A program made the translations under genes and the position numbers. Under the pieces are notes generated by a model. That model made no database searches, was not told the DNA's origin, and worked only from the letters and a program-made list of their open reading frames with translations. A stretch of 64,000 nt of DNA from Nitrospirota bacterium (lineage in GTDB: Bacteria; Nitrospirota; UBA9217): positions 20,504 through 84,503 of the forward strand of contig DASPSR010000030.1 in assembly GCA_035623825.1 (NCBI GenBank), given 5' to 3'. This document shows, one piece after another, positions 23,037-27,253 of this stretch (position 1 is its first letter; every line of letters begins with the position of its first letter).

Positions 23037-24815
23037 TCAACATATCTCCGGATCCTCTCCCTTGCCGCCCGGCATCAGGTCGCATTCATTGAAGACGCGG
23101 AGGATGCACACCCGGCACCGTTCCGGATCGAGCCGCGGAACGAGTTTGCGGATGGCTGCAGTTTTCGAACCCAGGATGTTCTCCTCTCCGATTCGCTTGA
23201 TATATCCGCCGCGATGCAGCGTCTCTATCACCGCTCCCTTGAGCGAGCACAAATAGAGCTTCCTGCCTTCCAAGTGAAGCCTGTGCGCCTCGTTCGCGAG
23301 TGTCTCCGCTCCAGCAACGTCGATGAAGTTGATTCCTCCGCCCACGATAAGGATATGTGCCTGCTCCGGGCTTGTCTGAGTCGCCGCGTTCAATTCCTCA
23401 GCGAAATGGTTGACGGCGCCGAAGAATAGGGACCCGTCCACTCGCAGGATTTTGAGCTGTGGACACTCGGGCAGGTCCTTTCTCTCGACATTAATGAACC
23501 GCTGATGATACCCTTCGTGCTCAGGAACAAGCGTGACGAACCTCGGATGGGAGGTGCGATTGAGGTACAGGAGCAGGGACAACATGACACCCACGTAGAT
23601 AGCGAACTCCAGTTCCACGAGCAATGTCGCCAGGAATGTGACCGCCATTACTGCCGCTTCCTGGTTACTGGTCATGATGATGGTGCGGATGTGATGGAAA
23701 TCGATCAGGTTCCAGGCCACCAGCAGGAGGATGCCTGCCATGGCCGGCATGGGAAGGTACGCCGTGAGCGGCGCAATCAGGAGCAGAACCAGGGCGAGCG
23801 CCACAGCGGCGATCACGGCGGCCATCGGCGTCTGCGCCCCCGCGTCGTAGTTTACACCCGTGCGGGTAAAGGACCCTGACGATGCATAGCTCGAGAAGAA
23901 GCTGCCGACCATGTTCGCCAGCCCTTGGCCGATGAATTCCTGGTTGCTGTCAATGCGTTGGTGGGACCGAGTGGCCACGGCGCGGGCGATGGAGACAGCC
24001 TCAGCAAGGCCGAGCATGGCCACAGCCAACGCACTAGGAGCAAGGGTCCGAATGTTCTGCGTTGAAAGGTCGGGCACCGAGAGCGGCGGCAGGTGCGCGG
24101 GCAGCGAGCCCACAAGCCGCACGCCGCGGGCCTCACCATGCAGCGCTATGCACGCAAGGCTGCCAATCACCATGGCGATCATCATTCCTGGCAACTTCGG
24201 CACATAGATTTTGAGCAAGAGTGCTGCGGCAAGGGTGACAAGGCCGATGGCGACCACGAAGGGGTTGATGTCGGAAACATGGTGTAGCAGGTCCGTCCAG
24301 ACATGAATGAACGCATGCCGTTTCGATCCTGGCACACCAAGCAGGTTGTTCATCTGACTCGTACCGATCAGGATCGCCGCGCCAGCGGTGAAGGCGACTA
24401 CGACCGAGTGTGAAACGAAGTTGATCAGGGCGCCAAGTCGAGCGATCCCGAGTGCCAGCTGGAACAGCCCCGCCAGGAACGTGATGGTCAGAATCATCTC
24501 AAGATAGGTGACGGTCCCGGCCTGGGCAAGGGGGCTTACGGTCGAAAAGAGCACTATCGAGATGGCTGTGGTCGGTCCAGAGACGAGATGGTACGAGGAC
24601 CCGAAGAGCGCGGCGAAGATCGCCGGCACGATGGCCGTGTAAAGGCCGTACTCCGGAGGCAAGCCCGCAATGATGGCAAAGGCAACACCCTGCGGCAGGA
24701 CTATGACCGCGCCGGTCAGGCCCGCGAAGAGGTCCCCGCGAAGCGACCGACGGTTGACTTTCGGCCACCAGGCACGGAATGGCAACGCCGCGTTTAGAAG
24801 ATCGGATTTGTCCAT
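23037..24815 (-). CDS. SulP family anion transporter with STAS domain
   Basis: GDLFAGLTGAVIVLPQG, PEYGLY, SGPT, SNQEFIGQG, RVDGSLFFG, INFIDVAG. Cys-containing tail CRVC......C. Confidence 0.92.
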   Translation of the reverse strand: MDKSDLLNAALPFRAWWPKVNRRSLRGDLFAGLTGAVIVLPQGVAFAIIAGLPPEYGLYTAIVPAIFAALFGSSYHLVSGPTTAISIVLFSTVSPLAQAGTVTYLEMILTITFLAGLFQLALGIARLGALINFVSHSVVVAFTAGAAILIGTSQMNNLLGVPGSKRHAFIHVWTDLLHHVSDINPFVVAIGLVTLAAALLLKIYVPKLPGMMIAMVIGSLACIALHGEARGVRLVGSLPAHLPPLSVPDLSTQNIRTLAPSALAVAMLGLAEAVSIARAVATRSHQRIDSNQEFIGQGLANMVGSFFSSYASSGSFTRTGVNYDAGAQTPMAAVIAAVALALVLLLIAPLTAYLPMPAMAGILLLVAWNLIDFHHIRTIIMTSNQEAAVMAVTFLATLLVELEFAIYVGVMLSLLLYLNRTSHPRFVTLVPEHEGYHQRFINVERKDLPECPQLKILRVDGSLFFGAVNHFAEELNAATQTSPEQAHILIVGGGINFIDVAGAETLANEAHRLHLEGRKLYLCSLKGAVIETLHRGGYIKRIGEENILGSKTAAIRKLVPRLDPERCRVCILRVFNECDLMPGGKGEDPEIC

Positions 24816-24972
24816 AGCAGTCGGTCGGATCAGTAAAGCAGGCCTCGCGGAATATGTTCATATTGTACCATACAGGTGTGAAAAGTGCAGTTATGAGTGC
24901 GCAGATCAGCTCACATGCGGGGAATCGCTTTTTTGCAATCACAGCACTTCATACCGAATTGTTCTCCTCCCG

Positions 24973-25266
24973 GAGCGAACGAGGGAAATCGGCCTACGCC
25001 TCGCGGTAGGAGCGAAAGCACGGATAGAGGCCCAGTTCCTGAGCGAGGCCGTCATCTTGAGCCTGTTCGGCAGCATTCTGGGGATCTTCGTAGGCGTGGC
25101 CAGCTCGTTCATCGTGGGGCACGCATTTGGATGGCCTATGTCCATTCCTCTTGAAGCGCTCACCGTCGCTCCGCTGTCCGCTGTCGGTCTCGGGGTTTTC
25201 TTCGGTTTCTATCCGGCGTGGAGGGCCGCACGGCTGGATCCTATTGTCGCCCTCCGTCATGAGTGA
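24973..25266 (+). pseudogene. Remnant (C-terminal ~97 aa) of a MacB/FtsX-type ABC permease
   Basis: ERTREIGLRLAVGA...QFLSEA...FFGFYPAWRAARLDPIVALRHE, with no start codon or N-terminal part. Confidence 0.8.
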
Positions 25267-25424
25267 CAGGAATGATCAGAACTTTTTATAGCTCGTTCCA
25301 TCCCGTAATTTGTCAATATTCCATTTTGACAAAAAATCCGAATTAATCCAGAATTGTTTTGCCTATGCCAAGTCAGCATATATTCTGTTGACAGAAATGA
25401 CGGCATAGTCCTCCTGATTGACGT

Positions 25425-25832
25425 TTATTTGCTTATGTCCTCTTGATCTGCCGGCATCACCTTTTCAATGACCGTCCCGAAGACGGTCAGCGTCACCTTC
25501 GGCCGCTTGGGGTCATTACTCGTGACCTCGATTGTTTCGGTGATTACACCGGTTTGATTCAGCGTTGCAACCTTGGCGCTGATGGCACCCTCTTCTCCCT
25601 GCTTGAGATGGCTTGAACTAGCCATCACGGCCGCGCACCCTCAGGAGGTGGTAAGGCTGTTGACTACCAGTTCGTCGGTGCCCTTGTTTTTGAATATAAA
25701 AGAATATTCCACCTCTTCGCCTCGCATGACTTGGCCAAAATCATGCTTTTCGGTCACGAATTCGATGGATGGCTGGCTCCAAGCGAGAGTTGGCTGACAT
25801 AGTACAAGAATGAGAAAGAAAATCTTATTCAT
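25425..25832 (-). CDS. Exported DUF1573 (Ig-like) protein with in-frame TGA; candidate selenoprotein (135 aa, Sec64)
   Basis: Two same-frame ORFs joined at TGA 25641-25643: HDFG..F.FKNKG..LVV...TS*GC...SNDP. The family motif is SCGC. Confidence 0.75.
25607..25626 (-). promoter_or_regulatory. Candidate bacterial SECIS hairpin
   Basis: GATGGCT-AGTTCA-AGCCATC begins 14 nt 3' of the in-frame TGA, with G at loop position 2. Confidence 0.6.
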
Positions 25833-25919
25833 GATTAGAGTATAACATAGCGCCTATTGACATAACGTTGCACAGTAATCTGATAAAATATAGATGATTA
25901 CCAGAAAGGAGACTGTGTC

Positions 25920-26354
25920 ATGATGAGAAGAGCGATAATACCGTTGGTTGCCGCATTTTTAATCATCTCTGGAAACGGTTATGCAGCCGCTGCAGGCAAG
26001 ACTCCCGATCAATTAGTGAAAGAGGCCAAGGCGTCTATCAAAGAGTTTACGGTCAACGATGTCAAGAGCATGATTGACGGAAAAGAGAAGATCATCCTCC
26101 TTGATGTCAGGGACAAAAACGAGTTCGAAGAAGGGAGCATCCCCCGTGCAATAAACATCTCTCGTGGAATGCTCGAATTCAAGGTGGCCCTGGTCATCCC
26201 CGATAAGAATGCCAAAATCATCGTATTTTGCGGTCTCGACCTCAGAGGGCCTCTGGCAACGAGATCCCTGAATGAAATGGGCTATATGAATGCCGCGAAC
26301 ATGATCGGCGGCCTCAGGGCATGGAAAGAGGCGGGCTATGCCATCGCGAAATAG
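25920..26354 (+). CDS. Exported single-domain rhodanese-like sulfurtransferase
   Basis: Signal peptide, LLDVR..EF..G.I, active-site loop FCGLDLR, GGL.AW. Confidence 0.85.
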   Translation: MMRRAIIPLVAAFLIISGNGYAAAAGKTPDQLVKEAKASIKEFTVNDVKSMIDGKEKIILLDVRDKNEFEEGSIPRAINISRGMLEFKVALVIPDKNAKIIVFCGLDLRGPLATRSLNEMGYMNAANMIGGLRAWKEAGYAIAK

Positions 26355-26503: not shown

Positions 26504-27253
26504 ATGAGGACAATTGTCCGAACATCACTGCTGTTTGCAGTTCTTATTTTATCAGCAGGTGCAATTTTTGCCGTTGAGAAGGAGGACACTCAGAAATCGA
26601 CCCCAAAGGGAAGGACGTCCGTCCTGATAGAACCGGAATTTACCATTCTTCCGGCAAAAACAGCAGTGCTGATAATGGATTATGAGAACGATATCCTTGG
26701 CATGATTTCAGATGATGAACGGACGGCTTTGGTGGAAAGAGCGAGCACGGTTCTTCAAGAAGCTCGAAAGGCCAAAATTACCATTATCTATATTGTCGTA
26801 CGTTTTCGTCAAGGCTACCCTGAAGTCAATTTGCAGAATAAACTTTTCAGCAGCTTGAAAGAATCTGGACGTCTTCTCGAAGGAACGGCCGGTGCGGAGG
26901 TAGATTCGAGAATAGCTCCGCAACCGGGTGATATCGTGGTAACGAAGCGACGAGTGGGTGCTTTTGCCACGACCGATCTAGAAACGATTCTGAAGTCGAA
27001 TAACATCAGCAGGCTGGTTTTATTCGGGATCTCGACGAGCGGCGTTGTTCTCTCTACGGTTCGATGGGCTGCCGACATGGACTACTCACTGGTCGTTGTC
27101 TCGGATCTTTGCGCAGACCGGGATCCGGAAGCAGGTCGTGTCTTGATGGATAAAGTCTTTCCGTGGCAGGCTACGGTTGTGAGCAGTAAGGAATTCCTGA
27201 AGGCAATCGGGGCGAAGGACGCAAAGTATTCCGAAAAACTCGGCCGAGAATGA
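26504..27253 (+). CDS. Isochorismatase/cysteine-hydrolase family protein with signal peptide
   Basis: AVLIMDYEN, VVTKRRVGAF, GISTSGVVLSTVR.A.DMDY. AGGAGG RBS. Confidence 0.85.
   Translation: MRTIVRTSLLFAVLILSAGAIFAVEKEDTQKSTPKGRTSVLIEPEFTILPAKTAVLIMDYENDILGMISDDERTALVERASTVLQEARKAKITIIYIVVRFRQGYPEVNLQNKLFSSLKESGRLLEGTAGAEVDSRIAPQPGDIVVTKRRVGAFATTDLETILKSNNISRLVLFGISTSGVVLSTVRWAADMDYSLVVVSDLCADRDPEAGRVLMDKVFPWQATVVSSKEFLKAIGAKDAKYSEKLGRE

Follow-up and report, generated by a model that had tools for sequence, protein, structure and literature searches.

Within the window, i.e. the whole stretch of 64,000 nucleotides that was analysed, a minus-strand reading frame starts with an ATG at 25832..25830, runs for 63 codons into the sequence ACC ACC TCC TGA GGG TGC, and stays open in the same frame past the TGA until a TAA at 25427..25425. 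The TGA at 25643..25641 is the sole interruption of the frame 25832..25425, and the read-through product has 135 aa, with T-S-U-G-C at residues 62-66. The 63-aa ORF (25641..25832) and the 67-aa ORF (25425..25628, GTG start) that the earlier note had assigned to one frame are indeed the two halves of this frame. The features of the locus are as follows.

25839..25847, minus strand: TGTTATACT, an extended -10-like box ending 6 nt upstream of the ATG, in a layout shared with rhodanese-paired orthologues
25425..25832, minus strand: read-through coding sequence of the predicted DUF1573 selenoprotein, 135 codons plus TAA with selenocysteine (Sec) as codon 64, matched by PF07610 and NF041425
25776..25832, minus strand: probable Sec-type signal peptide, residues 1-19 (MNK, hydrophobic core, A-W-S), recognised by eye and with a putative cleavage site
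25470..25766, minus strand: DUF1573 / HYDIN-VesB-like Ig domain, residues 23-121, crossing the TGA (Pfam, AF2 and fold matches)
25641..25643, minus strand: UGA codon 64, predicted to be read as Sec, the first residue of U/C-G-C, from a column comparison of 25 TGA and 7 Cys forms
25635..25637, minus strand: TGC codon of Cys66, a column invariant in 32 of 32 homologues
25607..25626, minus strand: bSECIS-type hairpin with a 7-bp stem and the 6-nt loop AGUUCA, from folding, conservation and covariation
25920..26354, plus strand: single-domain rhodanese of 144 aa with a signal-peptide-like N-terminus and the active site C-G-L-D-L-R-G (PF00581, E 8.3e-18; alignment)

The rhodanese and selenoprotein genes are divergent, and their starts lie 87 bp apart (25833-25919). 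The layout TGnTATA(A/C)T, 6 nt, ATG is present in all four rhodanese-paired orthologues inspected (the present gene, L024, L025 and L061), and no Shine-Dalgarno sequence was found upstream of the selenoprotein ATG; judging from these two observations, the selenoprotein mRNA may be leaderless. The -10-like box at 25839..25847 was not listed by a consensus promoter scan.

The Pfam model PF07610 (DUF1573) matches residues 23-121 of the read-through product over profile positions 1-98 of 98, with an E value of 2.5e-21 and 76 bits against a gathering cut-off of 26.1. Because this is a single match, the DUF1573 domain continues across the stop, which bears out the domain similarity that had been proposed for both sides of the TGA.

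The earlier note had left open whether such a family was unreported; the family is in fact covered by the NCBIfam model NF041425, "OS_HP2 family (seleno)protein", and DUF1573 proteins with a U-G-C site have been in print as selenoproteins since 2007 under the name OS_HP2. The portions of PMC9312934 and PMC13188914 consulted list a selenoprotein of the DUF1573 type with a UGC motif, which was traced to the OS_HP2 of Zhang and Gladyshev (2007, PMC1976440), OS_HP2 and the DUF1573 row being equated through the matching order of table rows in the accessible text together with the NCBIfam name. Table 2 of PMC1976440 gives two selenoproteins and 0 Cys homologues for OS_HP2. Deltaproteobacterial symbionts were the source of the original sequences. 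NF041425 aligns with residues 27-121 of our product over 95 of its 98 model positions, at 79.4 bits against a cut-off of 100 bits. It likewise matches 32 of the 32 homologues described below, with a best E value of 2.3e-24, and all of them score below 100 bits. By the NCBI rule, the gene studied here is, on its sequence score, a sub-threshold relative of OS_HP2. It shares with OS_HP2 the DUF1573 domain, the U-G-C Sec motif and a SECIS-like hairpin just downstream, but it differs in that the present clade consists of Nitrospirota MAGs (closest named records) instead of deltaproteobacterial symbionts, in its sub-threshold scores, and in the plentiful Cys forms found here against none in the 2007 paper. 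For a specialist the selenoprotein itself holds little surprise, because U-G-C selenoproteins of the DUF1573 family were already published; what is new is the Nitrospirota clade as members of OS_HP2 beneath the curated threshold.

To learn whether the TGA recurs in relatives, a six-frame search was made of 41 genomes (our own and 40 relatives). It found homologues in 32 genomes, and 32 distinct best loci were extracted, of which 25 carry an in-frame TGA inside the match and 7 are stop-free. In all 25 TGA forms, from 23 genomes, the TGA occupies a single alignment column, which is filled by Cys in each of the 7 stop-free forms; this is the TGA/Cys alternation for which the earlier note had recommended a search. 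In the protein alignment of 32 rows, U/C64, G65 and C66 are invariant. The SCGC said to occupy this site in DUF1573 proteins is true of Cys homologues (L026, L027, L030 and L041), and the other Cys forms have PCGC (L029 and L031) or TCGC (L052). Two loci, L032 and L038, have a second TGA, which is a true stop because it lies where other homologues end. Our own genome contains three TGA copies, namely the gene at 25425..25832, C19:377-688 (L020) and C13:283277-283591 (L021).

In a wider sample of the phylum, 110 of 251 genomes had a match at E <= 1e-8, and by hand count 91 of the 127 matched places contain at least one in-frame TGA, the remaining 36 containing none. The TGA column was confirmed in 42 fetched loci, namely the 25 aligned forms, L061 and L063, and 15 of 18 further loci, the site not being parsed in L068, L072 and L083. 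Since most of the Sec forms come from one taxonomic family, the homologue counts are not independent. Related loci were additionally sought: a search with the single protein gave 180 pattern matches with none confirmed, and a search with a 3-row alignment gave three loci, all in Nitrospirota MAGs.

These data bear directly on the reading that a simple nonsense mutation or an error of sequencing produced the TGA, in a pseudogene or between two unrelated small ORFs. Gene callers do treat the TGA in this manner: as the earlier note had expected, they split the gene, and 27 short proteins of 59-71 aa are recorded, with a query coverage of 36-50%; among them are two entries named "hypothetical protein", of 63 aa and 66 aa, each on a 3215-bp contig. 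A nonsense change confined to this strain is nevertheless at odds with a TGA that occupies the same column in every one of the 25 aligned TGA forms and in 15 further loci, and with its frequency in the phylum sample, where the position was checked in the fetched loci. One Pfam domain crosses the stop, and the half downstream of it is free of decay. The comparative sequence data thus refute the nonsense or error reading, to which we assign next to no probability.

The practical value of these observations is in annotation. In public protein sets, the present gene and its relatives appear either as two hypothetical proteins of half length or as a product with Trp in place of Sec, and NF041425 at its current cut-off would not rescue the members of the Nitrospirota clade. 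With homologues in 110 of 251 genomes and an in-frame TGA at 91 of 127 places, the clade could be used to widen the OS_HP2 model.

Downstream of the TGA, a hairpin is formed by the 5' arm GATGGCT (25626..25620), the loop AGTTCA (25619..25614) and the 3' arm AGCCATC (25613..25607), all on the minus strand. It is the perfect 7-bp hairpin, with its loop 21 nt after the TGA, that had been noticed earlier, and the gap between TGA and stem is 14 nt. In a 30-nt window of the present gene its minimum free energy (MFE) is -11.1 kcal/mol. The fold of the single sequence is unremarkable (MFE -14 kcal/mol against a shuffle mean of -13.7, z = -0.11, with 79 of 200 shuffles as stable or more so), as would be expected if the TGA were a mere nonsense change, so the case for a hairpin that does not arise by chance must be comparative.

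Folding of the homologous 30-nt window gave a hairpin with the loop AGUUCN, 7-8 bp and the same register in 24 of the 25 Sec forms, at -8.6 to -13.2 kcal/mol, L039 being the Sec form with a different fold, and gave no such hairpin in any of the 7 Cys forms. The hairpin is also retained by 15 more Sec forms that belong to other taxonomic families, weakly in two of them (-4.8 and -7.8 kcal/mol). In a gap-free DNA alignment, 89% of the cells of the 8-pair helix are paired, a share that drops to 24-51.5% if the 3' partner is shifted by 1-3 columns; both sides have changed in 5 of the 8 pairs (28 cells), G32 and C35 of the loop are invariant, and none of 500 shuffles reached the observed covariation score. 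The hairpin is therefore conserved and covarying in Sec forms and missing from Cys forms, which answers the check for a covarying hairpin that the earlier note had suggested. Part of this conservation comes from codon constraints, since the hairpin lies within the coding sequence; a conserved Ser-Ser is encoded by the loop. Changes in the stem go along with substitutions in the protein on both arms (M-A...S-H against V-I...N-R and L-V...N-R are examples), indicating that RNA pairing is maintained at the cost of protein change.

According to the parts of a 2026 review that describe the bacterial SECIS model, the loop has 3-9 nt, the stem 4-16 bp, a G occupies loop position 1 or 2, the distance from UGA to loop is 16-37 nt, and the MFE is -7.5 kcal/mol or lower. 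The present element agrees with every one of these constraints, with a 6-nt loop, a 7-bp stem, a G at loop position 2 followed by U, 21 nt and -11.1 kcal/mol. Like the bSECISearch consensus, it is a hairpin directly 3' of the UGA, within the coding sequence, with G then U opening a small apical loop; it differs in being short, with a single stem of 7-8 bp and a consensus that has no lower helix, and it is a candidate SelB site. The textbook bacterial SECIS, that of E. coli fdhF, is likewise a hairpin just 3' of the UGA inside the coding sequence. An Rfam scan of 25300..25900 at E values up to 10 returned chance-level matches and no SECIS family, and a missing Rfam match is usual for bacterial SECIS elements.

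A further reading is that an altered genetic code, or near-cognate suppression, makes the UGA a codon for Trp, Gly or Cys and not for Sec. One public gene call fits it, in which a homologue of 52% identity has W at the site and which is the only full-length call, reading the TGA as Trp. This homologue is P0002, a JGI metagenome protein of 128 aa on a 1100-bp contig with W at the Sec position, where the gene caller evidently read TGA as Trp. A changed code is difficult to reconcile with the genome at large: TGA ends 709 of 1561 stop-to-stop frames of at least 300 codons and is the commonest terminator, so that it is an ordinary stop elsewhere in the genome. Furthermore, the in-frame TGAs of selD and fdhA stand at classic Sec sites, stop-free homologues have Cys at the aligned position without exception, never Trp or Gly, and the SECIS-type hairpin occurs together with the TGA but not in the Cys forms. 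Translation as a standard residue is consequently, in our estimate, very improbable, if slightly less so than a nonsense change.

As for the decoding of Sec by the organism, its assembly comprises 67 contigs with a total of 3.24 Mb, at a completeness of 89.65%. It contains a selD above cut-off (C48:65582-66493) with one in-frame TGA, which places U in G-A-G-U-A-C-K, the classic position of the active site. Two fdhA genes (formate dehydrogenase alpha) score above cut-off, with one TGA each.

These two fdhA genes lie at C22:12211-14214 and C60:4828-6831, and a gene for another molybdopterin oxidoreductase, also with one in-frame TGA, lies at C39:37575-38018.

The earlier note had advised looking for sel genes in the genome. 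Of these, selD was found, itself with Sec, while selA, selB and selC were not found in this assembly of 89.65% completeness. In detail, selA was sought in the assembly with TIGR00474 and PF03841 and not found; for selB, TIGR00475 gave GTPase-domain matches below cut-off and the PF09107 wing domain no match; and for tRNA-Sec, ARAGORN listed none and the best RF01852 match had 41.6 bits against a threshold of 47 bits. A 633-aa GTPase on C42 was considered as a hidden SelB and rejected, as its GTPase domain alone matches (62 bits) and a SelB wing domain was not detected genome-wide. ARAGORN listed no tRNA-Ile or tRNA-Phe in the assembly either, so its tRNA set is incomplete, and with 67 contigs and 89.65% completeness the absence of selA, selB and tRNA-Sec is not established.

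Among the 41 genomes, 27 have a selA that scores above cut-off and 28 have the SelB wing domain, and selA and selB lie 2-3 kb apart on one contig in most of the genomes that list both. All five relatives tested have tRNA-Sec, which in four of them is on the contig of selA and selB, 2.4-10 kb beyond selB; in those four the selA-selB-selC span is 7.7-13.5 kb, so that one assembly gap could take out all three genes. Reviews state, in the portions available, that selC overlaps or sits within selB in some Nitrospirae. Sec forms occur in 23 genomes: a selA scoring above cut-off is present in 18, a fragmented selA in one (G001), and no selA match was obtained in the remaining four, whose completeness is 63-96%. 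Among the 8 genomes with Cys forms, 6 lack both selA and selB. The selA-selB-selC region of a genome of the same genus was compared with our genome by blastn and tblastn; synteny is poor, and the one flanking counterpart is a TRL-like protein about 6 kb from our selD. No sel remnants were found in our region around the TRL-like protein and selD.

In G001 (same genus, 77% complete, about 10 contigs), selA is in four pieces with TAA and TGA between them at G001:C10:284212-285600, which reflects either a decaying gene or consensus errors of the assembly.

The gap in the sel set raises the alternative that the selenoprotein gene is real in the lineage, but that this strain has lost selA, selB and selC, the TGA terminates, and the TGA genes are freshly non-functional. 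Five different queries failed to find selA, selB or tRNA-Sec in the assembly, and three other genomes (G003, G009 and G020) have Sec forms without detectable selA and selB. A recent loss would, however, have to accommodate at least six genes (three DUF1573, selD and two fdhA) with intact frames on both sides of the TGA, a downstream hairpin that is intact in the three DUF1573 genes (the ones that were folded), and a selD that itself requires Sec at its active site. It is also weakened by the completeness of the genomes without sel genes, 63-96%, and by the sel cluster of the four relatives, which a single gap would remove. We consider loss in the strain very unlikely, although it is the least improbable of the three alternatives, and the six or more intact TGA genes strongly imply, as far as gene content can tell, that the strain decodes Sec.

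Taken together, the gene very probably encodes a small exported selenoprotein that is a sub-threshold relative of the OS_HP2 / DUF1573 family. In the proposed mechanism, translation would begin at 25832, and the hairpin starting 14 nt downstream would recruit SelB and Sec-tRNA(Sec) at UGA-64, where Sec would be inserted instead of termination to give a 135-aa precursor. A Sec-type signal peptide would direct the precursor to the periplasm and leave a mature protein of about 116 aa, which would fold as a PapD/HYDIN-like Ig β-sandwich with U-G-C on a tight turn between two strands. The selenol/thiol pair would then cycle between a reduced form and an Se-S bond, Cys66 probably being the resolving partner of Sec64, and the protein would serve as a periplasmic relay of electrons or sulfane sulfur.

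With regard to export and fold, residues 1-19 are a probable Sec-type signal peptide, and a signal-like N-terminal pattern is common to the homologues in the alignment. The AF2 model, computed with the 32-row alignment, is an eight-strand β-sandwich with a mean pLDDT of 88.1 and a pTM of 0.75; its first strand begins at residue 23, low confidence is limited to residues 1-20 and the C-terminal tail, and the tight turn between strand 55-62 and strand 66-70 carries U64-G65-C66. In the fold comparison, PapD-like/ASH Ig domains of HYDIN match best, followed in second place by PDB 2qsv (Foldseek E 5.6e-7, TM 0.67 on the query), which is the only solved structure matched by the sequence profile (E 4.9e-6). 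Both the signal-peptide-like N-terminus, seen by eye, and the Ig-like β-sandwich of the model and fold matches agree with the secreted Ig-like product of 135 aa that had been anticipated. 2qsv, an uncharacterised DUF1573 protein of Porphyromonas gingivalis W83, has the same Ig-like β-sandwich, but it has two domains and 220 residues and is without Sec. The fold and profile matches included no solved relative with a known function. In the main texts available, no function for DUF1573 was found, and papers on subjects other than selenoproteins list DUF1573 in tables only.

The chemistry of the motif may be approached through the bacilliredoxins BrxA and BrxB, which use a CGC active site. They have in common with U-G-C a chalcogen pair of the same two-residue spacing, an analogy of chemistry only, and they differ in having a thioredoxin-like fold where an Ig-like sandwich is predicted here. 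By this analogy, a CXC-type chalcogen pair would be a redox motif.

Weak local matches near the motif to PF06491 (E 0.0041, 17.7 bits against 25) and TIGR04191 (19.2 bits against 100) are both below cut-off. Membership in the Bacilliredoxin / YphP family, which these models represent, was rejected on the scores and on a fold that is not thioredoxin-like.

Fusions and neighbours offer leads to the function of DUF1573. A C-terminal cytochrome c domain (PF13442) is present in 5 of the 7 Cys forms (L026, L027, L029, L030 and L041) and in all four long Sec forms tested (L074, L078, L079 and L080), the latter with two CxxCH motifs each, so that the fusion occurs in both Sec and Cys forms. No mention of a DUF1573-cytochrome c fusion was found in the portions of the literature consulted. 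A DsbA-like thioredoxin gene adjoins three Cys forms (L026, L027 and L031). The cytochrome c fusions and the invariant U/C-G-C turn point to a periplasmic redox role; given that the protein is a selenoprotein, we judge a periplasmic selenol/thiol redox centre to be about as probable as its opposite.

The third lead is the pairing with the rhodanese. The divergent pair is found in 9 of 9 loci of the subgroup, all in the same taxonomic family (own genome, G003, G017, G162, G152, G209, G199, G204 and G166). Neither L063 nor any of the 12 fetched loci of other families has it. Since it is confined to one family of genomes, the pairing is possibly plain lineage synteny. Elsewhere the gene neighbours are housekeeping genes. 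That the selenoprotein works with the neighbouring periplasmic rhodanese is the weakest of our proposals, and we regard it as rather doubtful. In its broadest form, the hypothesis would make DUF1573 a module for redox reactions in the periplasm, in which the U/C-G-C turn passes electrons or sulfane sulfur to and from c-type haem and rhodanese partners; in this lineage, the stand-alone Sec form would be co-expressed with a Sud/PspE-like periplasmic rhodanese from the shared 87-bp divergent promoter region, possibly on a leaderless mRNA, and the two proteins would act as a relay for sulfur or selenium in an anaerobic Nitrospirota bacterium that cycles sulfur. We put this forward as a speculative proposal that is unlikely to hold as a whole. 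If true, the redox-relay reading would be the first function assigned to DUF1573.

The two other DUF1573 paralogues of our genome, L020 and L021, have one TGA each at U-G-C and the same hairpin, and belong to a second subgroup. The conserved gene context of this subgroup, full at L021 and partial at L020, consists of a TtcA-like PP-loop protein, an MshEN (c-di-GMP-binding) protein, DUF1573(U) and a BhcA-like aminotransferase. A sulfur-relay idea for this context was discarded because the class V aminotransferase resembles BhcA (346.8 bits) rather than a cysteine desulfurase, and the context offers no lead to function.

Two further genes were noted in the window around the locus. At 26504-27253 on the plus strand, an isochorismatase-family hydrolase with a hydrophobic, signal-peptide-like N-terminus adjoins the genes of the exported rhodanese and the selenoprotein. 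At 24670-25266, also on the plus strand, the last approximately 95 residues of a 198-aa ORF match the C-terminal domain of FtsX permeases (PF02687, E 4.9e-14), and the 5' part of the ORF overlaps the start of a convergent SulP sulfate permease gene (23037..24815, minus strand); judged by this partial match, the ORF looks like a remnant of an ABC permease gene.
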